Virus record (IMG/VR): IMGVR_UViG_3300025018_000093
DNA length: 64,000 nt
Origin: a virus
Lineage: Duplodnaviria > Caudoviricetes
Strand: one strand, 5' to 3'
Part shown: piece by piece, positions 3,270 to 57,991 of the stretch
Layout of the letters: each line of letters begins with the position of its first letter
Position numbering within the stretch: position 1 is the first letter of the stretch
The notes under the pieces: generated by a model
Database searches by the model: none
The model's input: the letters and a program-made list of their open reading frames with translations, nothing else
What the model was told of the DNA's origin: nothing
Translations under genes and position numbers: made by a program

Positions 3270-5558
3270 ATGTCAGCAGAGAACGGGAGCAAGTCGGGGA
3301 ATCGGATGGAGGTGGGGTTGTTCATTCCGCTCCCCGAAGTACTTGCCGAGGAGTGCCCCTCTCTGGCCCCGGAAGACAACTCAGTCCCTCACGTCACATT
3401 CCTGTATGTTGGAGAAGTACCCGGGGAACGGGAGGACGAGTTCCTCCAAGTGGTCCAGGAAGCTTTCTCTTCACTGGGTAATGTCCATGCTTCCCTAGGG
3501 AAGCTGAGTTACTTTGTACACCCCGAGCAAACCATCGCACACATGCGTGTGCGGTTTGATCAGGATCTGCGGGGTGCTCGTCAGCGTCTCCGTGAGTCTC
3601 TGGAGGCTGCAGGGTTCTCTGTGGAGGATAGCTACCCCCTTGTCTATCATCCACATGTCACCCTTGCCTACCTGGAGGGAACCGACCGAGTCTACGAAGG
3701 TCCCCGCCCTTACGGCGGGTGGACGTTCAATAGCATCGAAGTTTGGGGTCTTCCCCAGGTGCATACGGTGCGATTCGGGGTCAATCCTCAGAGAGTAGCC
3801 TTTGCGTGGAGTCTCGTTGCCAAGTACCAGAAAAAGGTCAAGGACGAGGAGGGGAACACGCATTATGAGTACGGACCTCGGCAGGTTGCGGAGCGACATA
3901 AGGAGAAGGCCAAGAAGGTTGAGAAGCTCCGCAAGTCTATAGGTGGTCTTCGGGAGCGTGTTCTCTCGGATCTCCAGGGAAAGGATGAGAAGAAACGCCT
4001 TCTGGCTTTGGTTGTGGCGCTAATTGATGCCACCTATGAGCGAGTGGGAAATGAGGACTCTGCCAAGGATGGCCACTTCGGTGTTACGGGGTGGCAGGCG
4101 CAGCACTTGGAGATTAAGGGAGATAAGGCAACAATCACGTATGTCGGGAAGAGTGGGGTCAACCAGAAGAAGGTTGTGGATGATCCTCGCATCCTGTCGG
4201 TGCTTCGAGAAGTGTCCAAGGACAAGTCTGGAAAAGATTCCTTGATGGCCTATGGGGAAGAGCAGCTCATTAGCTCTAAGGATGTCAACGAGTATCTCTC
4301 CAAGTTTGGGGTCACGGCCAAGGACTTGCGTGGCTTCCATGCCAATAGAGAGATGTCGGAGCGTTTGAAGAAGCTTCGGAAGAAGGGTCCTACCCTTCCG
4401 AAAGGTCGGAAGGAAAAGGATGACGTCTTGCGGAAGGAGTTTGAGAAAGCTCTTGCGGAGACTGCGGATGCTGTAGGGCACGAGGAGGCCACGCTTCGCT
4501 CGGAGTACCTAGTGCCAGGGTTGGAGGATGACTTTCTCCACGACGGGACGGTTTTGGACACGTACCTGAAGAAGGGCACCAAGACGCGGACGCAAGCCGA
4601 GGATGAGGAGGTAGAACGCCTGGTTCGTCCAAGCCCGAAAAAGAAGCCCCCAAGGAAGGACAAGCGGCGGAATCAAGTTCAGATCAAAGACTCGGACCTA
4701 GGCCAGGGTGACCGGGGGGACGATAAGGACTTGTCTTTGAACTACAAACGTGTTGGTGGCGAAAAAATTCGTCAATCGACGTCCTATAACGAGACTCTTA
4801 TAGGCGAGAGGGTAGGGCATGGTGAGGGGATTCCTCCACTGTTCTCTCAAACCGCCGCCATGCATTGGAGGGAAGACATGCCTCGAAGAATGACTAAGAA
4901 GGGCGCTCAGCAAGTTGTGGTTGAATTGGACCGTCTCGCCAGTGTGATGCAAGATCACTGGGAAGCGCTGGGCGTTCCGAAGAGGGCAGCCTTGGATCTG
5001 GCATACCGCTGTGATCTCCTGTCGGACTACATCGAGAAGAGTGCTGGTCTCCAGCCCTCGGTGAAGAACGAGGGGTTTGATCCCTCGGAAATCGCCGCAG
5101 AAGAGTCCGGTGCGCTGGAGAGCAACAAGGACGAAGCCTACACTAAGAAGAACTTCACGGAGCAGGAGCACCGCGAGCTTCGCGAGAAGCAGGAAGCTGG
5201 AAAGCTCCCTAGCGCGGAGAAGTTGGCTTCCCAGCATGGCTTCAATCTGTTTGCCTCCGACTTCTACAAGCTGTCACCCATCCTTTTGGGTGAAGTGAAG
5301 GCGGATGTCGCGCAGAGGTTTGAGGAAGATCCTAGCAGACGTCGCATCTACAACGTGGATGCCATTCTGCGAGAGGTTGCCAGAGATTATTGGCAACAGA
5401 CTTCGAAGGATGATCGGTTTGATCTCATGAGTGCTCTTGATCCTGGCGTGGGAGTTAAGAGTGTTGCTTTGAGCCAGAATGTAAGACAGATCCCCGTCGA
5501 GATTGCAAAGAGACTTCTCACCAAAGAGCGCAAGTGGGCAGAGAGCTTGCTCAGATAA
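3270..5558 (+). CDS. Multidomain protein: 2H phosphoesterase + DNA topoisomerase IB catalytic domain + C-terminal virion-type domain
   Basis: Two HxT motifs (PHVTF, HPHVTL). Topo IB catalytic set: ERVGN (R), GKSG (K), KDLR (R), VGH (H), SEY (Y). Region from 4878 is paralogous to the next gene. Confidence 0.8.
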   Translation: MSAENGSKSGNRMEVGLFIPLPEVLAEECPSLAPEDNSVPHVTFLYVGEVPGEREDEFLQVVQEAFSSLGNVHASLGKLSYFVHPEQTIAHMRVRFDQDLRGARQRLRESLEAAGFSVEDSYPLVYHPHVTLAYLEGTDRVYEGPRPYGGWTFNSIEVWGLPQVHTVRFGVNPQRVAFAWSLVAKYQKKVKDEEGNTHYEYGPRQVAERHKEKAKKVEKLRKSIGGLRERVLSDLQGKDEKKRLLALVVALIDATYERVGNEDSAKDGHFGVTGWQAQHLEIKGDKATITYVGKSGVNQKKVVDDPRILSVLREVSKDKSGKDSLMAYGEEQLISSKDVNEYLSKFGVTAKDLRGFHANREMSERLKKLRKKGPTLPKGRKEKDDVLRKEFEKALAETADAVGHEEATLRSEYLVPGLEDDFLHDGTVLDTYLKKGTKTRTQAEDEEVERLVRPSPKKKPPRKDKRRNQVQIKDSDLGQGDRGDDKDLSLNYKRVGGEKIRQSTSYNETLIGERVGHGEGIPPLFSQTAAMHWREDMPRRMTKKGAQQVVVELDRLASVMQDHWEALGVPKRAALDLAYRCDLLSDYIEKSAGLQPSVKNEGFDPSEIAAEESGALESNKDEAYTKKNFTEQEHRELREKQEAGKLPSAEKLASQHGFNLFASDFYKLSPILLGEVKADVAQRFEEDPSRRRIYNVDAILREVARDYWQQTSKDDRFDLMSALDPGVGVKSVALSQNVRQIPVEIAKRLLTKERKWAESLLR

Positions 5559-6045: not shown

Positions 6046-6702
6046 ATGCCTATCCGCAAGAGAGCTACATACATCAATCAACAGCAGCGGGCTACCGAGT
6101 TTCAAGTCGGGCAGCCCGTAACGCATTGGGGGCATCCGATTGAGGAATCGGGTCGTGTGACCGCAGTGTGGCCGGCTATTGGTCAGGTTGACGTGCAGTT
6201 CCCTTGGGGCAACGTTCGGGTTCCCGTTGAAGACCTCCAGATCATTGCAGACAGCACTTGGATTGTCACCCCGAAGAATGACAATACCCCAGGCGGAACA
6301 GCTACCCTGGTTTCGGGTGGTCCCTTTACGCTGAAGGATGCTCCCTATGATCCTCTTCCCCTCCCCGTGAAGGTGAAGACGGCTTCCCCTAGTCTGGAAC
6401 GTGTCGTGGTGGCCTACGTCAAGAAGGCTATCTACTGGCAGGAAAAGAATCGGAAGTACAGGGTCAGCCAGGGCGAGCGAGACAGTGGTAGCTTCCATTG
6501 TCCGCGTTGCAAGGAAACGATCCTTCGGGACGCCATCTACAAGCGCGAAGAGGGGCAGAGTGTGCGTCTTCTGGGTTGCCCCTCGTGTCTCTTTCTGGTC
6601 AAGAAGGAAGACTTGCTTGGGGTCGAGTCTTCCGCACCGGATTTGGAAGTTGCTATCCCCCAGGGAAAGAGCGTCATGATTCGCCTACTGCGGGGTGAGT
6701 GA
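6046..6702 (+). CDS. Hypothetical head-module protein with SH3-like N-terminus and Zn ribbon (CPRC...CPSC)
   Basis: ORF with two CxxC pairs, tightly packed in the head operon. Confidence 0.65.
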   Translation: MPIRKRATYINQQQRATEFQVGQPVTHWGHPIEESGRVTAVWPAIGQVDVQFPWGNVRVPVEDLQIIADSTWIVTPKNDNTPGGTATLVSGGPFTLKDAPYDPLPLPVKVKTASPSLERVVVAYVKKAIYWQEKNRKYRVSQGERDSGSFHCPRCKETILRDAIYKREEGQSVRLLGCPSCLFLVKKEDLLGVESSAPDLEVAIPQGKSVMIRLLRGE

Positions 6703-6703
6703 G

Positions 6704-8143
6704 ATGGCATTCCTTCGTTATGCATATGCGCAGGACATCCGCCAAGTCAGCTCCAAGACCTGGAGCAAGATACGAGTTTCGTCCACGACGGCGACTATCA
6801 GTCCCAACCTCCTGGAGCAGGCTAGCGAAATTCTGCACGAGCACTTCGATCCGAATAAGTACCTCCTGTCTCACGCCACTATCGTGGCCAGTGTGGACAC
6901 GTATGATGTTCCTGGGGTTGTCACAGGGAACATCAAGGAGGGCAGTCGAACAATCCAGCGCAAGTTCTCCAACTATCGAATCCTCCCCGAGTGCGATCCT
7001 TGGATCAACAACAACAATGACTCCTGGGAACGTCGTGTTCTGCTCAAGAGCTATGCCACTTTTGTTGGTGGGCACAACTTCGTAGAGCACGTTCAGATTG
7101 AGGAGCAAAGCAAGGGTCGCATCCTGGATGCTTGCGCGAGGGACATTGGGGACTCCGTCTACGTCGACATCCTGATTGCCACGGCGAAGAAGCACAAGTC
7201 CCTGATCAACTCCATCCAGTCTGGGGAGATGGGGACCCTGTCGATGGGGTGCTCTATTGACTTCTCTCAATGCACTAAATGTGGACATGTGGCTGTTGAC
7301 GAAGCCGATATGTGCCCCTGCGTGCGGTATGAGAAGGGCAACTACTTCTATGATGATTCCGGTCGTCGGCACCGCGTAGCCGAACTCTGTGGGCATCACT
7401 CTGTGAATCCCACAGGGGGTGTGCGATTCATCGAAGGATCTTGGGTCGGTGTTCCTGCCTTTGGTGGAGCTGTCTTGCGTACCATCCTCACCCCCGAGGG
7501 TGTCTCCGCAGAGCATTTGAAGCGGGCTCAGGCCCTGCTGATGAATCCTCCGAAGGTGTGGTCTCGTGATGTCCTCCAGGGTATTGCCAAGGCAGCTACC
7601 CTGTTGGCTTCTGCGAAGAAAGCCGCGTTCGACTTTGGAGGCGAAGAGGACGAGGCTGATGCTGACACCGGTGGTGAAACTGGTGGAAGCTCCGATGGTG
7701 GTGGGACTTTGAAGGAGCTGGAGGATGCAGCCTCGAAAGAGGTTGTCCGACGGCTCAAGAAGAAGCTCCAGGATGAAATCAACCCACCGCAACCTGTGGA
7801 CAAGACGAAAGAGTCTATCACGGATGAGGAGCTTAATCGGCAAGCTGCAGCACAACGTCTGTGGGTTGGAAATGTCTATCGAGACACCATCCAGACCATC
7901 ACAAAGATGGCTAGCTCAGACGTAGAGTTGATTAATGGGGTTGCCCAAGTCAACAATTCGTTCGGTGTAGAAGTCCCGGTCGAGTTATACCGGGCAGCGT
8001 TGAGGGTAGGATCGACCACCCGTCACCATGATCCTCGGAAATATCTCCGGGCATGTGGGCAGGTAATGGGTCGGACGCCAACCCTGGGGGAGTCGCGAAC
8101 TCTAGTCCGACTCGGTAACCTGCTCGCTCGCTTGAGCGGCTGA
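6704..8143 (+). CDS. Prohead (capsid maturation) protease, putative
   Basis: HNFVEH and LSMGC motifs followed by a Cys/His cluster (CTKC, CPC, LCGH). Sits before scaffold, decoration and capsid genes. Confidence 0.65.
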   Translation: MAFLRYAYAQDIRQVSSKTWSKIRVSSTTATISPNLLEQASEILHEHFDPNKYLLSHATIVASVDTYDVPGVVTGNIKEGSRTIQRKFSNYRILPECDPWINNNNDSWERRVLLKSYATFVGGHNFVEHVQIEEQSKGRILDACARDIGDSVYVDILIATAKKHKSLINSIQSGEMGTLSMGCSIDFSQCTKCGHVAVDEADMCPCVRYEKGNYFYDDSGRRHRVAELCGHHSVNPTGGVRFIEGSWVGVPAFGGAVLRTILTPEGVSAEHLKRAQALLMNPPKVWSRDVLQGIAKAATLLASAKKAAFDFGGEEDEADADTGGETGGSSDGGGTLKELEDAASKEVVRRLKKKLQDEINPPQPVDKTKESITDEELNRQAAAQRLWVGNVYRDTIQTITKMASSDVELINGVAQVNNSFGVEVPVELYRAALRVGSTTRHHDPRKYLRACGQVMGRTPTLGESRTLVRLGNLLARLSG

Positions 8144-11902: not shown

Positions 11903-14470
11903 ATGCATTGCGTCCACACCATGGAGAGTGCTATGGGAAGCTTGTCTTCGAGGGTCACAAAGGAAAGTCTGGAGAGACTTCACGCGGAGTGTACGGACAG
12001 GGAGGTGGCAGCCTTGTACGGGGTCACGGATGTGGCCGTGAGTCGCCTTCGGTACAGGTGGGGAATAACGACGCTCTCCCAGCGGGAACGCCGGGAGGTG
12101 CTGCGGGGGGCTGAAGGGTTATCTTTGGACACCCTGACACCCGCGAAGTTGGTGGACCTGTACACACAGATGGGGGACTCCCAGATTGGTGCCCTTTACG
12201 GTGTGTCAGGCACGACGATTCGGAAACTCCGGCAGGATTGGGGTATACTGAGTCTCTCCAAACGCGAGAGGTCTACCTCAGTAGGAGACTTCACGGAGGA
12301 CCAGAAGCAAATCTGCATGGGAACCCTGCTTGGGGATGGTCACCTCATGAAGCATGGAGTCTTGAAGATATCCCATGCTTGGCACCAGCTTTCGTACACG
12401 AGATGGTTGCAACGAGCGTTGCAACCGCATGCTCGCCCTCTCTTCTATGAAGAGAAACAGATGGATACAGGGACTCTGTGTTTTGCCTTCGGGTTTCGTA
12501 CCCAGGAGCATGTTTGGTTGCGGACCCTCCGAGGGATTTTTTACCCAGAGGGGAGGCGTATCTTTCCGCAGTCTGTTCTGGAGGAGTTAGGGCCTTTGGG
12601 CTTAGCGGTCTGGTACTTCGATGATGGGAACCTTGCGAGTGGCCTTCCCTCTTTTGCACTGGGGGAGATCAGCGACCAGGAAGCGGAAGCGGTATGTCAG
12701 AAGGTGCACCAGAGGTTTGGACTCGACACTTATGTCCGACCACAGTCCACGGAGACCTGCAAAATTATGGGGGTGCGCGGGGGAAGTGCTGACATCTTCT
12801 TTCACCTGGTGCGCTCTTATGCCACCCCAGATATGCTCCACAAGCTCCCCCAGAAACACTGGACCACACACGCTCCGCTTCACATCCACAGCACGCCCGA
12901 GAAAGGGATTCCGCAGGAGTTGGGAGAGCGGTGCTGTGCGTGGGACTCCCTAAGTGCACAGTCTAGGGAGACGCTCCTGGGGGACCTTGTGGCGTACTGG
13001 CACCAGCGGGGTTTCCCACATTACGTGCCCCGCCCCGAGGAACTGGAAACGCTGCTGTCCCTATCTGCGGAGCAGGTTCTCCGCAAGGATGGTCTTTCCT
13101 GTCGTCCACACAATGTGGGGCAGGCAACTTGCCAGGCGTTCGCAACGCACATCTGGGAGGCTCGTTCTTGGGGATCTAAGCAGAGTCCTCGGGAGATATT
13201 TGAGGATGCAGACGCTCTTGGTAAAGCAATGTGCGCTCGCCTCACGGCCCGCAGTAAGACGCAAAAAGGACGTGTGGCACCCATGTCCGCAGCGGAGGTT
13301 CGTGTCAGTATCCGTTCCTGGAAGCTCTCCGGGGTGTACAATTTCAGACCGAGCCTAGCCAAGATACTAGTAGACTTGTACGGCACTCCTGGAGGGACTG
13401 TGTATGATCCCTGTGCTGGATATGGGGGAAGGATGCTCGGTGTGGTGCTTTCCCAGCATGTGATGCGTTACGTAGGGTGCGACCCCCATCGGGAGGGGAT
13501 CGCGCGTCTCGGTTCTTTCGCAGGTTGGTTGGAGGAGTACCTTCCAGGAGTGTCTTCCAGGGTGTCTTTGCATGTCACTCCTGCAGAGGACTTCTATCCA
13601 CCCCCCTGTGATCTTGTGATCACGTCTCCTCCCTACTGGTGTCGCGAGCAGTATGAAGACTCCCCACAGCAGTCCGGGGTACGGTACCCCACATACGCGG
13701 CATGGCTGGAAGGATTTTGGTCACGTGTACTTGGAGCTTCCTATCAAGCTCTCCGTCCGGGTGGGTGGATGCTCCTGAATGTGGATGACTTCACCATTGG
13801 GCAAACCTCATATCCTCTGGTGAAGGACACTTTGGATCTATGCCGAGACCTCGGTCTCCATCTGGAAAAGACTTTCCGCTATGAGATGCCGAGGTTTGCG
13901 CAGCGGAGAAATCATGAGTCTATTCTGGCTTTGGTCAAACACGGAGATGCCCGTGAAGTGACCCCGGCTGCCAAAATGACACTCTCTCGTTGTACCCAAT
14001 GTGGGTGCGTGTTACCTGCGAGGGAGCTTCGGGAAAAACGGTGCTCCGACTGCCGAAAGCCAAAGACACATATTGTGGTCTGTGAGGGCTGTGGGCAAAA
14101 GCTGGAGGCTCATCGGGGAAACCGCCGCTTCTGTTCTGAGAACTGTAGGGCTCGGCACCACCGAAAGAAAAAGTCCGAGGGGAGGGGTGCTATCGTGCGT
14201 TCCTTCCTCTGCATCTCTTGCGGGAAGACTTGGGAGACGGAAGCTCAGGGAAGTTTCAAATGGTGCCCTGTGTGCCGGGAGAGGGAGGCAATCCAAAAAA
14301 GGACGCAGACGTGCGCGTATCACCATTGCGGGAGAGAGTTCGTTGACACCACCCCGAAAAACTCGATGAGTTACTGTCATCCAGAGCATCGTCGTCGCGA
14401 GAAGTTGTTTCGCTCTGGTAAGGCGAAGGATTTGAGCTACTTCCGAAGTCCAGATCCCGTGCTGGGATAA
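11903..14470 (+). CDS. Fusion: 2x HTH + LAGLIDADG endonuclease + amino-DNA methyltransferase + Zn-finger array
   Basis: GTLLGDGH and LAVWYFDDG (LAGLIDADG motifs); YDPCAGYGGR (SAM-binding); TSPPY (catalytic); about 8 CxxC-type pairs at the C-terminus. Confidence 0.8.
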   Translation: MHCVHTMESAMGSLSSRVTKESLERLHAECTDREVAALYGVTDVAVSRLRYRWGITTLSQRERREVLRGAEGLSLDTLTPAKLVDLYTQMGDSQIGALYGVSGTTIRKLRQDWGILSLSKRERSTSVGDFTEDQKQICMGTLLGDGHLMKHGVLKISHAWHQLSYTRWLQRALQPHARPLFYEEKQMDTGTLCFAFGFRTQEHVWLRTLRGIFYPEGRRIFPQSVLEELGPLGLAVWYFDDGNLASGLPSFALGEISDQEAEAVCQKVHQRFGLDTYVRPQSTETCKIMGVRGGSADIFFHLVRSYATPDMLHKLPQKHWTTHAPLHIHSTPEKGIPQELGERCCAWDSLSAQSRETLLGDLVAYWHQRGFPHYVPRPEELETLLSLSAEQVLRKDGLSCRPHNVGQATCQAFATHIWEARSWGSKQSPREIFEDADALGKAMCARLTARSKTQKGRVAPMSAAEVRVSIRSWKLSGVYNFRPSLAKILVDLYGTPGGTVYDPCAGYGGRMLGVVLSQHVMRYVGCDPHREGIARLGSFAGWLEEYLPGVSSRVSLHVTPAEDFYPPPCDLVITSPPYWCREQYEDSPQQSGVRYPTYAAWLEGFWSRVLGASYQALRPGGWMLLNVDDFTIGQTSYPLVKDTLDLCRDLGLHLEKTFRYEMPRFAQRRNHESILALVKHGDAREVTPAAKMTLSRCTQCGCVLPARELREKRCSDCRKPKTHIVVCEGCGQKLEAHRGNRRFCSENCRARHHRKKKSEGRGAIVRSFLCISCGKTWETEAQGSFKWCPVCREREAIQKRTQTCAYHHCGREFVDTTPKNSMSYCHPEHRRREKLFRSGKAKDLSYFRSPDPVLG

Positions 14471-38180: not shown

Positions 38181-39125
38181 TTGAATCCGAACCACATCCG
38201 GAAGGCTTGGCTCGCTGTGAATGTGCAGGATCCCTGGCACAACATTCGGGAAGCTTGCAAGCAAGCGCTTCTCCTGGAAGATCACCTCTTCCACCCAGCG
38301 AAGTATTGCGAAGATTGTATCAGCAAGCATCTCCTGATGATGGAAGCTCTCCTTGAGGAAGCCGTCACCCTGGACGTGTCAGGAAGCCTCCAGAAGCTCC
38401 TAGGAAGCCTTCTGACGCGCGTGCTGACCTACCAGGTACTTTGGGCCTCCGGTCGCGCGGACGCGCGTCAGCTTGCCCAGGCGTTGCGCAAATGGCGCAA
38501 GGGGATCTGCGCGCAGGTCCTCCGCCCTCGAACGGTACACACTTCGCGTGTGGCTTCTACAGAAGCTGCTCGAAACACTGCCCTGAACCTCATTGAAGAA
38601 TCTCCCGGGAAGTCGTTTGAAAGCCTGGCGAAGACGGTACGTCAGCACGCCCAGTACCTGCGGGACCCTGTTACTCGGCAACGTGTTGACGCGGAAGATG
38701 TGGTCGAGGAGTTGGCCAAGTTGATGGGTGAGGAAGAGGTCTCGGAGGAAGACAAGCTACCTGGGGGGTACATCACGGTCTATCACGCCACGGACAGGAG
38801 CACCGCGCAGGAGTTCCTGAAGCGAGGCGCTATCCCCGAAATGAAGCCCCGACCCCGAGTCCCGATGGAGTACGCTCCGGGGAGGGGTGTTGACGTGGGT
38901 CTTTACGTGGGTCACTCTGCGAAGGCAGTGGATTCCTACGGCCCTGTGGTGCTCTCTGTGGCTGTTCCAAAGAAGTGGCTGGAAGTGCCCACAGAACTGT
39001 CCCAGTTGGGCTACAAAGACCCACTGAGGGCTCTACACGAGCATGACGGGGCCATCATCAAGAAACGTATCCCAGCTTCGGCCTTCAAAGTCGTTTTGGG
39101 GAAAGTTGGAAGGAGTGCAGCATGA
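38181..39125 (+). CDS. Two-domain protein: helical Cys/His domain + ADP-ribosyltransferase-like domain
   Basis: N: HNIREACKQALLLEDHLFH..KYCEDCISKH. C: VYHAT...RG...GLYVG...YGPVVLSVAVP (H-Y-Y ART-like pattern). Confidence 0.55.
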   Translation: MNPNHIRKAWLAVNVQDPWHNIREACKQALLLEDHLFHPAKYCEDCISKHLLMMEALLEEAVTLDVSGSLQKLLGSLLTRVLTYQVLWASGRADARQLAQALRKWRKGICAQVLRPRTVHTSRVASTEAARNTALNLIEESPGKSFESLAKTVRQHAQYLRDPVTRQRVDAEDVVEELAKLMGEEEVSEEDKLPGGYITVYHATDRSTAQEFLKRGAIPEMKPRPRVPMEYAPGRGVDVGLYVGHSAKAVDSYGPVVLSVAVPKKWLEVPTELSQLGYKDPLRALHEHDGAIIKKRIPASAFKVVLGKVGRSAA

Positions 39126-39613
39126 GTCTGAAAGGAAGTATTATTCGCCTCGCGTACCAGCGCCCTGCTCTGCGGAAGCACCTGCTTCCGTTGGTCTCGG
39201 AGAAAACCGCTGCGGAAGAGGTTCCCCTGGATGTTCAGGATTTCTTGCTCCGCATAGAGCGCACGGTGAAGAGGTACTTTCCGAGGGGGCACTTCGGTAT
39301 CCGAGCTGCTAAGGGGTTGGCGAACAGCTACGACATCTACATGGTGACCGCGACGCTCCCCAAGGGAAAGCAGCCTAACGGAATCATGCAGAATGACCCA
39401 TCGTTCAACACCTTCTGGATGTTTGGAGCCTACACCCCAGAGAGGGGTATGAATCCAAAGATCAAAGTCGAGATGTCGCAGGGTGGGAAGCTCTACAGTC
39501 CGAATGCCTTCAAGGCACAAAAGATTGGGTGGCGGGACAAGACCGGCACACCCGCACAGATTATCGCCCACTTCGACCGCTACTATGCCACGCTCGCGTC
39601 CATGGTGGAGTGA
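39122..39613 (+). CDS. Putative internal head protein with N-terminal RLAY tag
   Basis: Begins MSLKGSIIRLAYQRPALRKHLLPLVSEKTA. Confidence 0.65.
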   Translation: MSLKGSIIRLAYQRPALRKHLLPLVSEKTAAEEVPLDVQDFLLRIERTVKRYFPRGHFGIRAAKGLANSYDIYMVTATLPKGKQPNGIMQNDPSFNTFWMFGAYTPERGMNPKIKVEMSQGGKLYSPNAFKAQKIGWRDKTGTPAQIIAHFDRYYATLASMVE

Positions 39614-39628
39614 GGTGCGAGTTGTTAG

Positions 39629-39967
39629 ATGGCCAGTAAGTTTCATCCGGGAATTGAGATCCAACGTGCGGACATCCGCGTGTTTTTCACATACGATTGC
39701 GGGTCCCGGAGGAACGTTTGCGAGATCACCTATGCGCTTTACTATGTGGACCCCGGTCCACCAGAGGCAGAGGTTCTCATTGGGAGCCCACAGCGAACTC
39801 CTGTGAATCCCGAGGTGGGGGAGTATCACCCAGCGCTGTTCCTACCACTCAGTGCTGCTGTTGGATGGTACAGGCTCCGTTGGGTCTTTCGAAAGTCCCC
39901 AGAGTCCTTGCCTGAGCAAATTGTGATGCAGTTTCAAGTGGTGAGAAAGCTTCGGAGTCACGCATGA
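39629..39967 (+). CDS. Ig-like domain protein, paralog of the neck-protein N-terminal domain
   Basis: EITYALYYVDPGPPE.EVLIG..QRTPVNPE.GEY is shared with 39964-40280. Confidence 0.75.
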   Translation: MASKFHPGIEIQRADIRVFFTYDCGSRRNVCEITYALYYVDPGPPEAEVLIGSPQRTPVNPEVGEYHPALFLPLSAAVGWYRLRWVFRKSPESLPEQIVMQFQVVRKLRSHA

Positions 39968-40461
39968 CAATTCAATTCAATCCCGGAAGTGAGGTGCAAC
40001 GTGGGGATCTCTGCGCGTTCTTTCAGGATGCTTGTGGGTCCCGGACGAACATCTACGAGATCACCTATGCGCTCTACTACGTGGACCCCGGTCCCCCGGA
40101 GACAGAGGTTCTTATCGGGGCTGCACAGCGGACACCTGTGAATCCTGAGATGGGGGAGTACTACGCAGCACTGTACATCCCCCCGGACGCCATCGTGGGG
40201 AGCTATCGCATTCGGTGGACCTTCAAGGAAGCGAATGATGTTTCTCCTGCACAGGAGATCGTCATGGAGTTCCAGGTCGTGGCCAATGAGGCAACTCTGG
40301 GATGCCATTACAGTGCCTGCGTCCGGGAGCTGATGCGTCGGTTGCGCATTCACCTCCGAGATCAGTGTGTTGCTGGAGAGGAGTTGGTTGAAGTGATGGT
40401 CCACGGGGAGAAAATTGTGCTCCGAATGGACGAGCTTTGGGAGCTGACAAATGTCGAGTGA
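39964..40461 (+). CDS. Neck/head-tail adaptor N-extein (134 aa) + split intein N-half (31 aa, 40366-40458)
   Basis: ...RIHLRDQ|CVAGEELVEV...VE*; Cys1 and an intein block-A pattern. Confidence 0.8.
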   Translation: MTIQFNPGSEVQRGDLCAFFQDACGSRTNIYEITYALYYVDPGPPETEVLIGAAQRTPVNPEMGEYYAALYIPPDAIVGSYRIRWTFKEANDVSPAQEIVMEFQVVANEATLGCHYSACVRELMRRLRIHLRDQCVAGEELVEVMVHGEKIVLRMDELWELTNVE

Positions 40462-41356
40462 ACCACATTCTGTGTTGCTACCTTTGTTTGCGGAGCACGA
40501 TATCTCTTATGAAGTATTTCGTAAGAAGAGGAGACCTCCTCTGGGGATTCGGGAAAAAAGAGCTGCTATCGTGACCTGTCTACATCAACAGGGGTACTCG
40601 TGGTCTGAGATGATTTCAGTTACGGGCTTGTCTCAGGGGGCAATTCAAAGACTGACACAGGCCAAGGGTTGCGCCGCAGTACAGGAGAAGCTGAGGCTCC
40701 TGGGAACAGAGGTCGGGAAGTCCTGGAAAAGTCGCAAAAGACCAGGCCAACTTGAGCGGCAGTGGGAGACAGGGGTATTTGACCACCTTCGCGGACGTAA
40801 GCGTCCTGTCTGGGAGAGGGAGTGTTTGAAGGACTCTTGGACCCCAGAAAGAAGAGATGCCCAAGCTGTGCGTAGTTCTGAGACTGTATGGGGGGTCGAG
40901 GAAGTTCGAAATCGGATTCTGGCTTTCCACCGTTCTCCCGAAGAAAGGGCGCGGCGTTCTCGTCTTCAAACTCAGCGTATGCAAGAGAACCCTGTGAAGT
41001 ATCTTCGCGGGAAGGGTGGTTGGGTAGAAACTCCCAAGGGCGATAAAGATCAGGTTTTTGTGCGAAGTTCTTATGAGAGGGCGGCAATTTCTCTGCTAGA
41101 AGAGGACCCTCTGGTTATCAGTTACCAATTTGAGCCTCGATTTGTTCTTCTCAATGGTAAGTGGATACTTCCCGATTTCTTGGTACTTCCAAACCAGCCT
41201 CCCCACATACTCATCGAGGTGAAGGCTTCCTGGGTTTTGAAGCAAGCCCCCGATACAAAAGTACAACAGAGACTCCGTGCTGCTCAGAGCGTAGCTTCCG
41301 AAAGAGGCTGGAGCTTTGAGGTCTGGACGGAAGAGGAGTTGGCAGATGCTCTCTGA
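40451..41356 (+). CDS. Free-standing homing endonuclease: HTH + TnsA-N-like PD-(D/E)XK domain
   Basis: RSSYERAA...YQFEP...LPDFLV...LIEVKA...GWSFEVWTE. Overlaps both intein halves by 11 nt. Confidence 0.8.
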   Translation: MSSEPHSVLLPLFAEHDISYEVFRKKRRPPLGIREKRAAIVTCLHQQGYSWSEMISVTGLSQGAIQRLTQAKGCAAVQEKLRLLGTEVGKSWKSRKRPGQLERQWETGVFDHLRGRKRPVWERECLKDSWTPERRDAQAVRSSETVWGVEEVRNRILAFHRSPEERARRSRLQTQRMQENPVKYLRGKGGWVETPKGDKDQVFVRSSYERAAISLLEEDPLVISYQFEPRFVLLNGKWILPDFLVLPNQPPHILIEVKASWVLKQAPDTKVQQRLRAAQSVASERGWSFEVWTEEELADAL

Positions 41357-42239
41357 TGCGCAAAAAGAAAAGATCACTCGGGCCTTCCAGGAGAAGGCAT
41401 TGTGTGTAAGGTCTGTCTCTCCCGAGGGGCATTCCGAGTGGAAACGGGTTGTCCAGACGCATCGTGCTGAAGTGCCCTGGGAGGATATTTTTGAAGCAGA
41501 AACGGAGGGAGGGTCCTTTACTCTTACACGGGGACATCGTGTTTTCGTGACTCCTGTCGTAAAGGAGTCCATGGAGGACTTGAAAGAAGGTAGCACGGTT
41601 ACAGGTGTCCGAGAGGGAAAGGTAGTCGAGATTCCCCTTCGGGGTGTCAAGAGAGTGGCTTACCGCAGGTTCATGTATGATCTAACAGCGGAGGATTGGC
41701 ACAACTTTGTGCTGCATACCTCCGGTGTCCTGATCAGCAACAGCCCCGACAAGTTCTATCACTTCCGGCCCCCAGAGCACGAGGGGCGCATCGGAAAGTT
41801 CAACAGGGTGTTTGGGCAAATCTGGGAGGACGAAGAGCTGCTGGTCTACCTCCAGACGGCGCTGACAGACTGGAATGCTAAGCCCCCGGAGACCGAGAGT
41901 CTTTGCACCTTGGATGCACTCTGCGCACACAAGCCTGTATGGACCGGCTACATCATGACGAGAGCTATGTTCTATGCTCTCTATGCCCTGGCAATCAACT
42001 GGGTCGCTGACGAGTTCGATTACAGTATCGGTGGAATCTCCCTCAATATTGACAAGTCGTCGAAGTATGAGCAGATGAAACAGAATGCTAAGGCCGAGTG
42101 GGACTCTCACGTCGAGACCAAGTTGCAAACCACCAAGCTCGTGCGTGGTCTGCAGCAACCGCGATTCGGTATCGGCATACGCAGCGCGTTCGGCCCACAT
42201 GTAGGCCGGGGTGTTTTGAGCCCCCGATCCTTCCTCTGA
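41346..42239 (+). CDS. Split intein C-half (132 aa, 41346-41741) + neck/adaptor C-extein (165 aa)
   Basis: GAGGAG RBS; TLTRGH (block B), MYDLTAEDWHNF (block F), GVLISN|S (block G). Extein contains WEDEELLVYLQTA. Confidence 0.85.
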   Translation: MLSDAQKEKITRAFQEKALCVRSVSPEGHSEWKRVVQTHRAEVPWEDIFEAETEGGSFTLTRGHRVFVTPVVKESMEDLKEGSTVTGVREGKVVEIPLRGVKRVAYRRFMYDLTAEDWHNFVLHTSGVLISNSPDKFYHFRPPEHEGRIGKFNRVFGQIWEDEELLVYLQTALTDWNAKPPETESLCTLDALCAHKPVWTGYIMTRAMFYALYALAINWVADEFDYSIGGISLNIDKSSKYEQMKQNAKAEWDSHVETKLQTTKLVRGLQQPRFGIGIRSAFGPHVGRGVLSPRSFL

Positions 42240-42336
42240 GCAATTTTTTCTAAGTAATTACAATCACTTACGTTTTTCTGGACACGTCCTCAGACTTTTG
42301 CTACCTTGATTCAGGTGGCAGTCGATGGAGGACCAC

Positions 42337-42480
42337 ATGCCAGTCAAATGCCCGTACTGCGGAAAAGAGTTTCAAGGTGACAAGCTCAACGCACGTCACT
42401 TGTCGAAGTGCAACCCTGAGCTGCAAGCAACCGTGCCCCCGTGCCTCTGCGGGCACGAGTCTACGTCATTGGGGTGTTAA
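42337..42480 (+). pseudogene. Truncated Zn-finger ORF, probable endonuclease N-terminus
   Basis: GGAGG RBS; MPVKCPYCGKEF...NARHLSKC...CLCGH, then a stop after 47 aa. Confidence 0.5.
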
Positions 42481-42642
42481 CGCGTTTTCGATTTCGTCTA
42501 CACAACGTAGTAGATTGGTTTGTACCTGCGTCTCTGAGAAGCGAAGTACTTGGAACCCTCTTTGTTCTAGGTGCTTTGTTTGCTTCTGGTCTTTTTCCAA
42601 TTGCTTTGGAAAACGGGAGCTATGCCAGTAGTCGCCATCCGC
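42466..42642 (-). pseudogene. Startless DUF559/Vsr-like endonuclease C-terminal remnant
   Basis: Hand translation: ADGDYWHSSRFPKQLEKDQKQTKHLEQRGFQVLRFSETQVQTNLLRCVDEIENALTPQ*. Confidence 0.7.
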
Positions 42643-42699
42643 AATCTTCTGCTTTGCAGAGCTTTTTTGTTCTGCTGTCTGAGCAAGCGGGGGAATGCT

Positions 42700-44181
42700 A
42701 TGACGTTACTTCGAGACCTGGTACGGTTAGCGTACAAGCATGCGCACCTGCGCCCTGCTTTGCTTCCCCTCCTGAGGGAGGCGGCCTCTGCGGATTCCTG
42801 GAATGAGGACAAGCACGGCAACAAGTGGAGAGAAGTGAGTGGTCGTGTGGAGTATGAGTTCGAGCCGGATGTACCTCCGAGCAGACGAACCTGGCCTCCT
42901 CGACAAGATCACATCAAGACTGCCGAGCTGGCAATGCTGCGGAACGGTTACAAGACCGACAAGTCCGACCTACTTCAAGTTGTGGAAGGTGAGAAGCTTG
43001 TGCGGTATTGCGTGCAAGTCCCTGCATTTCTCCCACCGAACAAGTCCGGTGTGAGCCGTATAGCACCCGTCAAGGTGCAACTGGACTTGCGAGGCCTGGT
43101 TGTGGACAAGAGGCCCTCGGATTGTGTACCCCTTCCGAGTCTTGTCGCCCGGTATGCCAGATTCATACACCAGGGTAGAAAAACAGTTCGACGTGACACC
43201 CTGAAAGGGTACTTCAAGTCTGGGTTCTATGTTCGATTTGGAGCATGGTCCGGCCCGTCTACGTTTGGACTTGTGACGAACAATGAGGATTACGACGAGT
43301 GGAGTGAGCTGGGGAAACGTCATGAGATGGGTGTGTCCGTTTACGGCGTGCGGCGGATACGAGGTCGTTGGGTACTGGAGGACATAGATCGTAGTCAAGC
43401 GGTCTATGGTGTTGGAGACTACTGGGAGCACATGCTTGGCAGTGTACTGCGGAACCGACCGCTCTATCTCGTTCGTGGTGTTCCCATTGCAATCGAAGAC
43501 TCCCAGAATCCTGACAAGCCCTACTTGGCTAAGGGATCCGACGGGGAGCCCCTGTTGGAGCTGGATTCCGTGCACAAGGTCCAACAACTGAACCCCTATG
43601 AGGTCTTCGTCATTGACACGAAATCGGAGTCTGGCGTGAACGTTGGGAATGAACTCTCTATAGGCGATGCTAGTTGGCAAGGACGGATTGTTTCGCAGCC
43701 AGCTGGAGAGACGGCAATGAATCGGAATGCAACGGGGCGCTTAGCCGGAAACGGGGTTTCTATTTGGTTTGGGGACTCCTTTATCGGGTCTCCAAAAGCT
43801 TTTGGCCAACGCGGATACCCAACGTTGCGGGAAGCTGTGTCCGCAGCAAAGGCGGCAGTGGGTAAGCTACCCTCCCCTCTAGTGGCGGAAGATCCTGGAT
43901 TCCTCCCACCGGGATCTGTAGGTAAGCCACTGGCATCAAGTTGGAAACTTGGTGAGGCTGTGAATGCGGGTATTGTTTTGCACTACCCCCAGCCAGGCGG
44001 GAAGAGCCTGTACATGGCTGCGAGTAACTACCTGGTGAAACGAAAGCATCGACCTGCGGATAGCTTATCCATGAAGCCTCTGCCGAAACAGAAGGGGACT
44101 TTGCGGCCTTTGCATGCAAGTGTGATTCGACTTGCCTACCAACACCCAGAGCTGCGAAAGCATCTTCTTCCGCTACTGTGA
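42700..44181 (+). CDS. Putative multidomain internal head protein, RLAY tag at both ends
   Basis: N: LVRLAYKHAHLRPALLPLL. C: VIRLAYQHPELRKHLLPLL*. Middle YVRFG...EMGVSVY domain. Confidence 0.7.
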   Translation: MTLLRDLVRLAYKHAHLRPALLPLLREAASADSWNEDKHGNKWREVSGRVEYEFEPDVPPSRRTWPPRQDHIKTAELAMLRNGYKTDKSDLLQVVEGEKLVRYCVQVPAFLPPNKSGVSRIAPVKVQLDLRGLVVDKRPSDCVPLPSLVARYARFIHQGRKTVRRDTLKGYFKSGFYVRFGAWSGPSTFGLVTNNEDYDEWSELGKRHEMGVSVYGVRRIRGRWVLEDIDRSQAVYGVGDYWEHMLGSVLRNRPLYLVRGVPIAIEDSQNPDKPYLAKGSDGEPLLELDSVHKVQQLNPYEVFVIDTKSESGVNVGNELSIGDASWQGRIVSQPAGETAMNRNATGRLAGNGVSIWFGDSFIGSPKAFGQRGYPTLREAVSAAKAAVGKLPSPLVAEDPGFLPPGSVGKPLASSWKLGEAVNAGIVLHYPQPGGKSLYMAASNYLVKRKHRPADSLSMKPLPKQKGTLRPLHASVIRLAYQHPELRKHLLPLL

Positions 44182-55873: not shown

Positions 55874-57991
55874 ATGACAACGAAGCCAGAGAAGGCTCCC
55901 AGCCTGGGAGTAGGACTTGACATTGGAACAATGAACATCGTTTCCGCACGACGTACCCCACAGGGTGTGCGGACGCAGAGCATCCGAGATGCGTTCCTCG
56001 ACCTCGACCCGGATGCTCGTCGCATGTTGAAGATGAGCCAGGTCAAGTTCATTGAGCGAGATGATGATGTTCTGGTGTTGGGGGATGATGCCCTCCAGAT
56101 GGCAGCGATGTTCGACAAGGAAGCGCGCCGCCCCTTGTCAGCAGGGCTCATCTCATCATCCGAGGTGGACTCTCTGGAGATTCTGGGGATCTTGATTCGC
56201 AGTGTGCTGGGAGAACCGCAAGAGAAGGAAGAGGTGTGCTACTTCTCCGTGCCGGCTGCCCCCGTCGACATCCAGCGGGATGTCATCTATCACCGCAAAG
56301 CTTTCGAGCGCATTGTAGAGGAGTGTGGCTATCAGGCATACCCCTCCAACGAAGCAATGGCGATTGTCTACGCGGAAGCTGCCAAGGATGGCTTCAGCGG
56401 GGTTGGAATTTCTTACGGTTGTCTGACACCAGACTCCACAGTGATTTCCAGAGAGGGCTTGAAGCCCATTGCGGGGGTACAAGAGGGAGAAGAGGTGCTC
56501 TCTAAGGATGGGGCTTTTCACCGAGTTCTTAAAACATGGGTGCGAGATTACCAGGGACCCGTGTATGACATTTCTTTCTACGGAAATCCGCAGGGAGTGT
56601 CTTTGACAGGGAATCACCAGGTCTGGGTGCAAACGGAAAAGGGATGGTCTTGGATGACTGCAGACCGCTTGCAGCGGGGGGACATCATAGGAGAGCCTGT
56701 GGTCGCTGGTCACGGTCGTCGGGTATGCTTAGCTATTCAAGACAAAGATCGTAACTCTAAGGCAAAGAAGAAAGTTCTGGAATGGTCCTCTTCGCTGGGG
56801 AGGTTCCTGGGGTACTTCTTAGCGGATGGGCATCTCTCTAGGAGTGATGTGAATCGAAAAGGTCGTTACAGTATCTGGGTTGACTTTGGTCCCTCAGAGC
56901 AAGCGTATGTGGAGGACTTGAAGGGATTGGTAGAACGTTTGTTCCAGCGTTCTGTTTCTGTTTCTCCGCATGGCAATGATTTTCGTTGTCAGTTTAGTCA
57001 CAGTGGTCTACATACGTGGCTGTCTGCGAATTGCTATCGTGAGGGTGCGAAGTTCTTTCCGCTTCACATTGAGGACTTGAAGCCTAACGTGGTCGAGGGC
57101 CTTATCGTAGGTCTTGTTCGAGGAGATGGACGGGCTTCTAATTCCGAAGTGCATTTTGGCAATTCCAGTCTTTCCTTGGTGACTGCGTTTCATCTTTTGA
57201 TTGGTAGGTTGGGTCTTACAAGTACTCTTTCCAGGAGAAATCCAAGGGGAGCTGCGCTTGCGGACGGGCGTGTCATTCAAGGAAAAAAGGAAGAATGGAC
57301 TGCGCATGTTACAGGGTGGGATGGCTCCTATCTTCAACAACTTGTGAATGCTGGAAGTCCAGAAAGAAGAGTTCGTGTCTGGAAAGAGGGTGGGTTTCGT
57401 TGTACCTGCGTCCGTGATGTCTCCGTGAGAGATTATGCGGGGCCGGTGCATGATCTCACTGTGGAAGATGAGCATTCTTTTGTGACTCCTTACATGACGC
57501 TTCACAATTCGGGGATGACGAATGTGGCGCTGTCTGTCAAAGCGATGCCTGTCTTGGAGTTCAGCGTCAGTCGCGGGGGTGATTGGATCGATAAAGGTGC
57601 CTCCCAGAGTGTAGGGACGACGCAGTCTCGCATGTGCACGATCAAGGAGAAGGGTGTGGACTTGATGGACCACACGAAGGGAGATCCCAAGCAACTGCGA
57701 GAGCGGGAGGCTCTTTCCTTCTACTATCAGGACTTGATTGACTACTCTTTGCGGAAGATCGCAGAGCAGTTTCTGTCCAACTGTCGGGTGGAGTTGCAAG
57801 AGCCCATCCCGATCATTGTCAGTGGTGGGACAAGCCTAGCCGGTGGATTCCTGGAGCTTTTCCAGAAGGTGTTCAAGAAGCATCAGCGTCGGTTCCCTAT
57901 TGAGATCAGTGAGATTCGACAGGCAAAAGACCCGCTTAGTGCGGTCTCGCACGGGCTTCTCGTACAGGCCATGCAGGAGTATGAGGGTTGA
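55874..57991 (+). CDS. Actin-fold ATPase (FtsA/MreB/volactin-like) containing an intein
   Basis: GLDIGTMN, FSVPA, SNEAMA, GISYG|SGMTN, VSGGTS, PLSAVSHG: the complete actin/Hsp70 motif set. Confidence 0.85.
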   Translation: MTTKPEKAPSLGVGLDIGTMNIVSARRTPQGVRTQSIRDAFLDLDPDARRMLKMSQVKFIERDDDVLVLGDDALQMAAMFDKEARRPLSAGLISSSEVDSLEILGILIRSVLGEPQEKEEVCYFSVPAAPVDIQRDVIYHRKAFERIVEECGYQAYPSNEAMAIVYAEAAKDGFSGVGISYGCLTPDSTVISREGLKPIAGVQEGEEVLSKDGAFHRVLKTWVRDYQGPVYDISFYGNPQGVSLTGNHQVWVQTEKGWSWMTADRLQRGDIIGEPVVAGHGRRVCLAIQDKDRNSKAKKKVLEWSSSLGRFLGYFLADGHLSRSDVNRKGRYSIWVDFGPSEQAYVEDLKGLVERLFQRSVSVSPHGNDFRCQFSHSGLHTWLSANCYREGAKFFPLHIEDLKPNVVEGLIVGLVRGDGRASNSEVHFGNSSLSLVTAFHLLIGRLGLTSTLSRRNPRGAALADGRVIQGKKEEWTAHVTGWDGSYLQQLVNAGSPERRVRVWKEGGFRCTCVRDVSVRDYAGPVHDLTVEDEHSFVTPYMTLHNSGMTNVALSVKAMPVLEFSVSRGGDWIDKGASQSVGTTQSRMCTIKEKGVDLMDHTKGDPKQLREREALSFYYQDLIDYSLRKIAEQFLSNCRVELQEPIPIIVSGGTSLAGGFLELFQKVFKKHQRRFPIEISEIRQAKDPLSAVSHGLLVQAMQEYEG
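56420..57508 (+). mobile_element. Intein with LAGLIDADG homing endonuclease (363 aa)
   Basis: Starts CLTPDSTV; LTGNHQV (block B); GYFLADG and GLVRGDG; ends VHDLTVEDEHSF...LHN|S. Confidence 0.92.

Follow-up and report, generated by a model that had tools for sequence, protein, structure and literature searches.

This study describes a stretch of 64,000 nucleotides (hereafter the window) from a huge, uncultured, aquifer-derived phage, in which a nuclease gene lies inside a class-1 mini-intein of a probable neck gene, whose two halves would rejoin by trans-splicing. We estimate the probability of this reading at about 85%. [quoted passage not shown] Fractured genes as such are already known; what is new here is the adaptor-like virion host and the TnsA-like type of nuclease.

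Anatomy of the locus and its alleles in relatives

Three open reading frames (ORFs) occupy 39964-42239 on the + strand, one in each reading frame (0, 1 and 2), with overlaps of 11 nt at 40451-40461 and at 41346-41356. The first of them reads ...RIHLRDQ, then CVAGEELVEVMVHGEKIVLRMDELWELTNVE (IntN), and then a stop codon. The features are listed below, with the evidence for each in brackets.

39629-39967, + strand: ORF of 112 aa, paralog of the N-domain, a neighbour external to the intein (sequence)
39964-40461, + strand: ORF-N, 165 aa (134-aa N-extein and 31-aa IntN)
39964-40365, + strand: N-extein, 134 aa, ending ...RIHLRDQ (sequence, homolog alignment, homolog fold)
40366-40461, + strand: IntN, 31 aa and TGA stop, with the Cys1 codon at 40366-40368 (block A hairpin CVAGEE...DELWEL)
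40439-40443, + strand: GGGAG Shine-Dalgarno-like motif, 7 nt upstream of the nuclease ATG and within the IntN coding sequence (sequence)
40451-41356, + strand: free-standing nuclease gene, 301 aa (PF08722, alignments, AF2 model, fold)
41075-41077 and 41174-41176, + strand: invariant nuclease residues E209 and D242
41216-41218 and 41222-41224, + strand: invariant nuclease residues E256 and K258
41333-41338, + strand: GAGGAG Shine-Dalgarno motif, 7 nt upstream of the ORF-C ATG and within the nuclease coding sequence (sequence)
41346-42239, + strand: ORF-C, 297 aa from its ATG (132-aa IntC and 165-aa C-extein)
41346-41741, + strand: IntC, 132 aa, ending ...SGVLISN, with Asn132 at 41739-41741 (sequence, alignment, profile)
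41742-42239, + strand: C-extein, 165 aa and stop, starting SPDKFY... (homolog alignment, homolog fold)

The succession of N-extein, IntN, nuclease, IntC and C-extein proposed in the earlier note was reproduced from the sequence in all its details, lengths and 11-nt overlaps included, and the spliced product is predicted to have 299 aa with the junction ...RDQ-SPDK... The 112-aa upstream ORF shares an ATGA with ORF-N, its stop codon overlapping the start of the latter. Over 106 aa it is 62% identical to the Ig-like N-domain of the N-extein, of which it represents a free-standing paralog, and upstream N-domain paralogs are likewise found in the relatives L024, L028, L032, L033 and L064. Its origin as a leftover of homing was considered and rejected, since diverged intein-free relatives carry the upstream paralog too. 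On the other side of the locus, the downstream neighbour gene is shortened to about 50 codons. The extein pieces of the window and most neighbouring genes had no match in PHROG or Pfam, and a blastn comparison of the locus with GenBank phages was likewise negative.

The earlier note had advised a search for intein-free homologs, and these were found: about 40 homologs fetched from huge-phage contigs are uninterrupted and read LRDQ/NPDKFYHFRP across the site (the slash marks the insertion point), with Asn where the locus has Ser+1. With exteins 85% identical to those of the locus, P0074 is the nearest relative, and it too is intein-free (RIHLRDQ/NPDKFY). In the database, the site is uninterrupted in 104 of the 120 best relatives, and 97 of these 104 have Asn at +1; IntC followed by the C-extein was found in 12. 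Of the nearest 120 host-gene clusters, about 10% have the intein. Every allele with an intein has a nucleophile at +1. At the DNA level, where the insertion site was compared with empty alleles more distant than P0074, intein-free alleles read CGAGATCAG before the site and AACCCCGAC after it, and in L001-like or P0074-like sites CGAGATCAG is followed by AACCCCGACAAG. The Ser+1 codon of the locus is AGC (41742-41744) and that of the empty alleles AAC or AAT (Asn), one base away (AAC to AGC).

L011 and L029 have contiguous in-frame mini-inteins at the identical site, of 162 and 177 aa respectively. Over their whole length these can be aligned with IntN joined to IntC, the break point being a loop, and the nuclease gene lies in the position of this loop. 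The fractured layout with a homologous nuclease was found in at least seven diverged contigs (L035/36, L040, L043, L049, L063, L027, L020/53 and L066), of which L027 has a truncated nuclease. Chance is excluded because uninterrupted homologs align gap-free across the junction and because the three-part layout repeats in these contigs. Since protein identities among carriers are 30-50%, the layout appears to have been long retained under selection. For nine carriers, nine changes of intein presence have to be placed on the extein tree, a scattered distribution that fits mobility or repeated loss and cannot by itself separate homing gain from loss.

Given that the sequence comes from a metagenome assembly, two compensating frame errors in a contiguous intein might simulate such an arrangement, as the earlier note had warned. 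However, the locus has a depth of 45 in the likely source run, and the architecture is common to independent diverged contigs. In contigs of three further aquifer runs, the two junctions are covered without a single difference or gap, and this exact match excludes frame errors, so that we leave next to no probability to an artefact. It is also hardly probable that the gene is made whole again in the mRNA, by splicing of a nuclease-bearing group I or II intron, or by the translating ribosome, through two programmed frameshifts that would restore a contiguous intein with the nuclease as an internal domain. The three frames of the window and the 11-nt overlaps on both sides would suit such a repair, and introns often house nuclease ORFs (PMC2677866), but an Rfam scan of 39000-43000 returned no intron or other RNA family at threshold, and the nuclease ORF, conserved as a protein over its full length, takes up the entire interval, so that a ribozyme core would have no space. 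Regarding frameshifts, the frame order is 0, 1, 0 in L043 and L063 and the overlaps vary within the family (4, 8, 11 nt and longer), so that no common frameshift is possible; besides, each internal ORF is preceded by a Shine-Dalgarno motif and starts with an ATG of its own.

The split intein and the predicted ligation of the exteins

Class 1 inteins are characterized by Cys or Ser at position 1, a block B TxxH and a C-terminal Asn with Cys, Ser or Thr at +1, and the locus has all of these in the form of Cys1, TRGH, Asn132 and Ser+1. IntC contains a helix EKITRAF, block B TRGH (T61-x-x-H64, 41526-41537), block F YDLTAEDWHNF with its His, and block G S-N/S, while IntN shares 63% identity with the beginning of the L011 mini-intein. 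Cys1, TxxH, YDLT..WHNF and S-N/S are kept in 9/9 aligned inteins, with T61-R-G-H64 and N132/S+1 conserved in all of them, and these residues persist despite an overall identity of 30-60%. The split is atypical by its lengths (31/132 aa, with IntN of 30-39 aa in relatives) and leaves only block A on IntN and blocks B, F and G on IntC. The profile check suggested in the earlier note gave a positive outcome, as the intein-family profile matches solved inteins (Mja KlbA, 8.6e-6; Npu DnaE, 3e-4; then Pho RadA and Spl DnaX) and its best 25 matches are all inteins or intein-like domains; Pfam PF14890 on ORF-C alone gave a weak match under the cut-off (residues 94-128, E 0.005). Together with the intein-free homologs reading LRDQ/NPDK and the mini-inteins at the same site, this profile supports the idea of a fractured gene with an atypically split intein put forward in that note.

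Complex modelling of IntN with IntC gave a score of 0.80, against 0.02 for the best control. Of 78 solved complexes, 51 came up to this mark, as did 2 of 108 mismatched pairs. The runs showed a contact agreement of at least 93% and a partner pLDDT of at least 81. The model supports that IntN may dock with IntC, in the sense of likeness and not of binding, since similar split inteins have already been solved.

Docking speaks for association only and not for chemistry. In this sense, the pieces could never be ligated, with the intein halves serving as a non-covalent clamp or with one step (e.g. Asn cyclisation) dead, and the neck protein would then consist of two chains. The penultimate residue of the intein (block G:6) is Ser and not His in 9/9 aligned inteins (Ala in L020). 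The penultimate His assists splicing without being obligatory, although in some inteins the cyclisation of Asn can be slower when Ser replaces it. There is also a precedent in phage Aeh1, whose nuclease-split NrdA is reported to be assembled without splicing (PMC3045599). However, C1, T61/H64, the Asp and His of block F, Asn132 and Ser+1 are kept in nine of nine inteins, and the pattern at +1, where all intein-bearing alleles have exchanged the Asn of most empty ones for a nucleophile, is expected only if this nucleophile is used. The penultimate His is variable and often lost in phage inteins, and inteins without it do splice (PMC5050341); Ssp DnaE reportedly lacks it as well (titles cited in PMC4031507), so that describing the penultimate Ser as unusual, as was done in the earlier note, was an overstatement. 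Overall, we consider a two-chain protein quite unlikely and favour ligation by trans-splicing.

The host protein and the nuclease

The N-extein comprises an Ig-like beta-sandwich domain and the first helix, and the C-extein a helical domain of adaptor-like type together with a conserved tail at the C-terminus. Comparison of residues 117-277 of an intein-free homolog with phage adaptor/neck chains (Pa223, A4, SU10, VP1, GP4, T4 gp13/gp14, phage 812, PhiM1 and Mu) gave Z values of 8-11, where about 13 is advised for helical folds; all helical-domain matches with Z of at least 8 are phage portal-tail or neck entries. A weak match to phrog_17327, 'head-tail connector protein', was present in 16 of 38 homologs (best E 1.1e-4), and the atlas leads Mu Gp36, T4 gp13 and SU10 adaptor scored below 0.9. 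The host-protein profile found nothing in Pfam or among PDB sequences, and a Foldseek search with the model against PDB and AFDB Swiss-Prot returned only generic Ig-like matches for the N-domain. Minor-tail and BppU leads from BFVD failed as a family assignment, the matches in this database being mostly uncharacterised phage proteins. The identity of the ~300-aa host protein as a head-to-tail adaptor (neck) is moderately supported, and the label 'head-tail-adaptor-like' of the earlier note keeps this same moderate standing from the fold scores and PHROG 17327. Regarding the claim that a structural neck protein is an unusual host, inteins in virion proteins (portal, minor capsid) were already known, and it is the adaptor/neck host that is new.

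The shortened downstream neighbour and the decayed nuclease of L027, which denotes that such decay occurs in the family, might indicate a dead gene, in which a decaying intein with its nuclease insertion sits in a dispensable or replaced structural gene. We find this very improbable, as none of the three ORFs is disrupted, the catalytic residues are conserved and ribosome-binding sites are present, no other copy of the C-extein was found within the 64-kb window, and the intact layout is retained across many diverged phages. Also, the host family is large (at least 1368 clusters) and highly conserved. Within this family, the host gene of some relatives has a second independent site (site b) with an atypically split Ser1 intein and a different nuclease, of DUF559/Vsr-like type.

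The 301-aa product of the middle gene combines an N-terminal helical region containing an HTH with a C-terminal TnsA-like PD-(D/E)xK domain. The match to Pfam PF08722 (TnsA-like endonuclease N) has an E of 3.2e-7 and 31.2 bits against a cut-off of 26.5, and the AF2 model (pLDDT 92.7) has TnsA 1f1z as its top fold match (E 1e-4, rmsd 2.3 A over 132 columns); in this way the name TnsA-like endonuclease used in the earlier note is supported by Pfam and by fold. E209, D242, E256 and K258, in the pattern E..PD..ExK, are invariant in 48/48 aligned nuclease sequences. No match to Vsr, DUF559 or GIY-YIG was obtained for the nuclease of the locus in Pfam, alignment and fold searches, where I-Bth0305I, the solved Vsr-like homing enzyme, ranked only 34 (E 0.42), and its profile found only a designed HTH repeat among PDB sequences. 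A literature search on inteins with a TnsA-like homing endonuclease returned nothing relevant. The nuclease also matches P0016, a 'lyase' of 493 aa from the contig of a bacterial MAG, which is apparently a chimeric call. We infer that this TnsA-like nuclease is the homing enzyme of the cassette.

Proposed history and comparison with known systems

The probable history begins with an ancestral gene for a ~300-aa virion protein, which carried a class-1 mini-intein at the conserved loop ...LRDQ/NPDK... A free-standing nuclease gene then probably entered a surface loop of the intein, after the first beta-hairpin, and broke intein and host gene into two cistrons. The three resulting cistrons would be co-transcribed, each translated from its own Shine-Dalgarno motif and ATG, with translation coupled via the 11-nt overlaps. 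Docking of the N-piece, by its 31-aa IntN tail, into the 132-aa IntC of the C-piece would complete the HINT fold, and splicing would proceed by Cys1 thioester formation, Ser+1 attack, Asn132 cyclisation and an O-to-N shift, giving the 299-aa protein. In co-infections the nuclease would cut intein-free alleles, into which the IntN-nuclease-IntC cassette would be copied.

A bolder proposal is that the fractured state has been co-opted as a checkpoint of timing or stoichiometry in neck assembly, set by slow capture of the 31-aa IntN, and that the TnsA-like enzyme represents an unrecognised homing-endonuclease family. It is suggested by the retention of the fractured state in many diverged huge phages, including the nuclease-decayed L027, and by site b of the same host gene with its different nuclease, although we regard it as unlikely.

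Like the fractured genes of Dassa et al. [quoted passage not shown] Their origin model, in which a nuclease gene invades an intein, fits, and L011 and L029 correspond to the predicted precursor state; the contiguous, split and empty alleles at one site form the series predicted by this gene-breaking model. Their hosts are enzymes of DNA synthesis, repair and packaging, and the present locus extends them to a virion adaptor-like protein. The nucleases differ as well, being GIY-YIG or Vsr-like in that study, whereas ours is a canonical PD-(D/E)xK TnsA-like enzyme, which widens the range of intein-associated nucleases and offers a candidate homing-endonuclease family with a defined target of ~20 bp. 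Moreover, 27-51 non-coding bases precede the nuclease gene in those loci, and an 11-nt overlap is found here. In annotation, huge-phage neck genes of this kind can be overlooked or mis-called as three hypothetical proteins.

With Tn7 TnsA (PDB 1f1z, 1t0f) the nuclease shares the catalytic fold, PF08722 above the cut-off and the E...D...ExK residues. In contrast to Tn7, there are no TnsB/C/D partners or transposon ends at the locus, where the nuclease gene has one half of the host gene on either side, and the N-terminal HTH-containing helical region differs. Because the nuclease gene lies within an intein, its role would be in homing and not in transposition; the enzyme is a fold relative of TnsA and not a Tn7 component.

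Portal and minor capsid proteins of actinobacteriophages also carry inteins (PMC5050341; bioRxiv 10.1101/2025.01.02.630785). These resemble the present case in their conserved structural-protein sites, the frequent loss of the penultimate His and the out-of-frame nuclease ORFs reported inside inteins, but they are contiguous and mostly have LAGLIDADG domains, whereas ours is split and has a TnsA-like nuclease. In the phage-intein literature searched there was no report of an adaptor/neck host or of a TnsA-like nuclease with an intein.

Finally, the split itself resembles those of GOS-TerL (37/115 for IntN/IntC), AceL-TerL (25/104), Cat-TerL (30/104) and PolB16 OarG (15/168), atypically split inteins (PMC2677866, PMC11766414, PMC10189870). 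Their published descriptions share with the locus the split near the N-terminus that leaves the block A hairpin alone on the short fragment, and the phage or metagenome origin, the GOS terminase locus being itself a fractured gene. The present intein differs in its 31/132 lengths, Cys1/Ser+1, penultimate Ser and host protein. Few natural split inteins have a short N-fragment, and such inteins are valued for protein semi-synthesis and labelling, as the short piece can be made chemically, and the locus belongs to a sizeable natural intein family. For none of the TerL and PolB16 inteins have contiguous alleles been described beside split ones at a single site, whereas the family of the locus has both, and this allele series constitutes a ready comparison for what makes split inteins work.

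Layout of the locus and its neighbourhood

We found that the putative neck gene is divided between two ORFs with a third ORF in between, the three lying in three different frames, and the ORF and intein anatomy that the earlier note had drawn from the sequence proved exact to the base. All large ORFs of the window lie on the + strand and, because it encodes a portal and a head-protease-like protein, the fractured locus falls within a phage morphogenesis region:

1456-3234, +, portal protein (phrog_16240, E 2.5e-23)
6695-8140, +, head-protease-like protein
39964-40461, +, ORF-N (N-extein and IntN), 165 aa, ...RIHLRDQ followed by CVAGEELVEVMVHGEKIVLRMDELWELTNVE and a stop
40439-40443, +, GGGAG, 7 nt 5' of the nuclease start
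40451-41356, +, middle (nuclease) ORF, 301 aa, starting 11 nt before the ORF-N stop
41333-41338, +, GAGGAG, 7 nt 5' of the ORF-C start
41346-42239, +, ORF-C (IntC and C-extein), its start overlapping the end of the middle ORF by 11 nt, from the ATG onward

ORF-C reads MLSDAQKEKITRAF...TRGH...YDLTAEDWHNFVLHTSGVLISN and continues with SPDKFYHFRPPEHEG... It was also recorded on a 261-kb contig, and the public runs containing the locus DNA are aquifer metagenomes. Two compensating frame errors in a contiguous intein, the artefact contemplated in the earlier note, were rejected, as contigs from three further runs span both junctions with 0 differences and diverged contigs show the same layout. An RNA intron was also discarded, since there is no Rfam match and the nuclease ORF occupies the whole interval, being conserved as protein over its full length. 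Nor does the gene look dead, as every ORF and catalytic residue is intact and the window holds no second copy.

Several neighbouring ORFs, all on the + strand, deserve mention. A 112-aa ORF (39629-39967), overlapping ORF-N by ATGA, encodes a free-standing paralog of the N-extein's Ig-like N-domain, with 62% identity; several relatives also have such an upstream paralog (~30% identity), which makes it a conserved companion gene rather than a homing scar. Downstream, a 51-aa ORF (42325-42480) shares 65% identity with the zinc-finger N-terminus of a DUF7487 protein of 451-478 aa, which is found full-length directly 3' of the adaptor gene in two relatives (L051, L066), the window retaining only its first ~50 codons. 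A ~20-aa motif, RLAYQxPxLRKHLLPLL, at the N-terminus of a 163-aa ORF (39122-39613) is repeated at both ends of a 536-aa ORF (42571-44181), possibly as the targeting tag suggested in the earlier note. Adjoining the portal gene, a 762-aa ORF (3270-5558) combines a 2'-5' RNA ligase/LigT-like domain with a eukaryotic-type topoisomerase I core (PF01028, E 3.5e-24).

One intein site with empty, contiguous and split alleles

Scanning IMG/VR with both exteins gave 64 loci, the longest contig measuring 618 kb. At about 40 of these loci, homologs of the two exteins form a single uninterrupted ORF of ~298 aa, ...LRxLLRDQ/NPDKFYHFRP (the slash marks the intein site). The family comprises at least 1368 clusters in a wider database; among the best 120 relatives, 104 lack any interruption (97 of them have Asn at +1) and 12 are IntC plus C-extein pieces. 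The closest relative (P0074, 85% identity over the exteins) reads RIHLRDQ/NPDKFY, the window's sequence with Asn for Ser, the +1 codon going from AAC to AGC. Intein-free homologs of the kind sought in the earlier note do exist, mostly with Asn at +1 (NPDK, against SPDK in the note).

At the same site, two relatives carry a contiguous in-frame mini-intein (L011, 162 aa; L029, 177 aa) that aligns end to end with the window's IntN and IntC, the window's break falling in a short loop that separates the first hairpin (...DLWE-L/I) from the next helix (EKIRxAF). The fractured layout of three ORFs, interrupted at the same point by a homologous nuclease, recurs in L035/L036, L040, L043, L049, L063, L020/L053 and L066, the latter a metagenome scaffold whose nuclease protein stands at NCBI under a Spirochaetes MAG; in L027 the nuclease is truncated. 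Overlap lengths and frame orders vary among the fractured loci, which argues against a shared frameshift mechanism and for independent initiation, and programmed frameshifting was rejected because frame orders differ between relatives. We regard this comparison of sequences as decisive for the fractured-gene reading. Taking together the uninterrupted homologs, the contiguous inteins and the recurrent layout, the feature is real and, as the earlier note proposed, very probably (about 85%) a fractured gene with a trans-splicing split intein. Much less probably, the host is a non-covalent two-piece protein whose pieces are not ligated; however, every intein allele has a nucleophile in place of the Asn at +1, and this speaks for a chemistry that is in use.

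Concerning mobility, the nine intein-bearing rows of the extein tree (49 sequences) need nine state changes, being as scattered as shuffled labels, and the window's sister is an empty allele. This distribution fits a mobile element with gains and losses, whose direction is not readable from the pattern. A close relative that shares the window's starred clade (L068, 6001-6894; P0076) is an empty allele yet has Ser at +1 (AGC codon, RIHLRDQ/SPDIHY), possibly the footprint of a precise intein loss.

Relatives also show a second site in the host gene, NWVADEF/(D to S)YSIGG. A Ser1/Ser+1 intein split there after ~35 residues around a DUF559/Vsr-like nuclease gene occurs in L049 (6001-7953), L054 (5581-7958), L055 (4683-7044) and L056 (6001-8382), and is contiguous in L051 (5599-7047). 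With two sites, both occupied in L049, the host gene is a hotspot for such elements. Elsewhere in the window, a 705-aa actin-like protein (55874-57991, +; Pfam Volactin PF25216, E 4e-71), an unusual phage host gene, contains the window's second intein, contiguous and with a LAGLIDADG domain (PF14890, 1e-9; PF14528, 8e-9). An 855-aa ORF (11903-14470, +) joins an endonuclease domain of the LAGLIDADG_2 type (residues 136-293, E 4e-17) to an N6/N4 DNA methylase and a zinc finger, and is either a possible third intein or a possible nuclease fusion.

Intein, nuclease and host protein

All nine aligned inteins keep C1, the block B TxxH, the block F YDLT..WHNF and a terminal S-N followed by Ser+1. The Pfam intein model matches ORF-C alone weakly (E 0.005), and a profile of the family gives better matches among solved structures (Mja KlbA, 8.6e-6; Npu DnaE, 3-5e-4; then Pho RadA, Spl DnaX and others), its best 25 matches all being inteins or intein-like domains. 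The predicted IntN-IntC complex, with five extein residues each, scored 0.80 (best control 0.02), a mark that 51 of 78 solved complexes attained, as did 2 of 108 mismatched pairs; as solved structures of similar split inteins exist, this shows likeness to those, not binding of this pair. Contacts agreed by at least 93% between runs, with partner pLDDT of at least 81.

The TnsA-like nature attributed to the nuclease is supported by a match to PF08722 (TnsA-like endonuclease N) that exceeds the curated cut-off, the same domain being present in many of its 72 metagenomic homologs. E209, D242, E256 and K258, within ...RSSYE..., ...PDF... and ...EVK..., are invariant across 48 aligned sequences and correspond by sequence to the canonical PD-(D/E)xK pattern. 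The AF2 model (pLDDT 92.7) has a helical N-terminal region with an HTH-like motif (residues ~37-68) and a C-terminal nuclease domain. The top PDB matches of this domain are TnsA (1t0f, 1f1z; E 1e-4, 132 columns at rmsd 2.3 A), and I-Bth0305I, a homing enzyme of the Vsr-like type, comes in 34th place (E 0.42). Nucleases reported in fractured genes are GIY-YIG or Vsr-like (PMC2677866), and therefore this one falls outside both families; the types named in a later survey are LAGLIDADG, HNH, Vsr-like and endonuclease VII-like (bioRxiv 10.1101/2025.01.02.630785). Our literature search for inteins with a TnsA-type homing endonuclease returned nothing relevant. A 493-aa protein with a lyase-domain annotation on a bacterial MAG contig (P0016; L065, 106-1587) matches the nuclease with 60% identity over 81% of the length, and probably results from a chimera in the contig or in the gene call.

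The host fold was modelled on an intein-free homolog (L001; AF2, 38 sequences, pLDDT 73), giving an Ig-like beta sandwich (residues 1-105) and a helical domain (117-277). The intein site comes directly after the first helix of the latter, in an invariant, poorly modelled loop, with R127, R131, D132, P135, Y139, P143 and P144 invariant nearby. In an exhaustive structural comparison of the helical domain, phage head-to-tail adaptor/neck chains rank top (Pa223, cyanophage A4, SU10, VP1, GP4, Moo19, T4 gp13/gp14, phage 812, the PhiM1 adaptor, the P1 connector and the Mu neck subunit) with Z 8-11, below the level advised for helical folds, and all matches at Z of at least 8 are phage portal-tail or neck entries. 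A protein atlas gave the same leads below its trust level, and an independent, weak sequence signal comes from phrog_17327, head-tail connector protein, which 16 of 38 homologs match (best E 1.1e-4). In line with the adaptor-like assignment of the earlier note, an adaptor/neck protein is the likely identity of the host.

Comparison with known fractured genes and split inteins

The locus is arranged like the fractured genes that Dassa et al. (2009) described, 26 loci plus one without a nuclease gene, whose hosts are, all but one of unknown function, DNA-metabolism or packaging enzymes; their terminase locus is also split early, leaving a 122-aa IntC (PMC2677866). The terminase intein and its relatives gave rise to atypically split tools, GOS-TerL (37/115), AceL-TerL (25/104), Cat-TerL (30/104) (PMC11766414) and PolB16 OarG (15/168) (PMC10189870). 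The fractured locus has a 31/132 intein with Cys1/Ser+1. Its Ser in place of the penultimate His, which the earlier note held unusual, is not remarkable, because this His is often lost in phage inteins, where the loss can even speed splicing (PMC5050341), and, going by titles cited in PMC4031507, is also lacking in Ssp DnaE. Inteins in virion proteins, portal and minor capsid, were already known (PMC5050341; bioRxiv 10.1101/2025.01.02.630785). With respect to the literature searched, the novelty lies in the adaptor-like host, the TnsA-like nuclease, cistrons that overlap instead of being spaced, and a single site where empty, contiguous and split alleles occur side by side.
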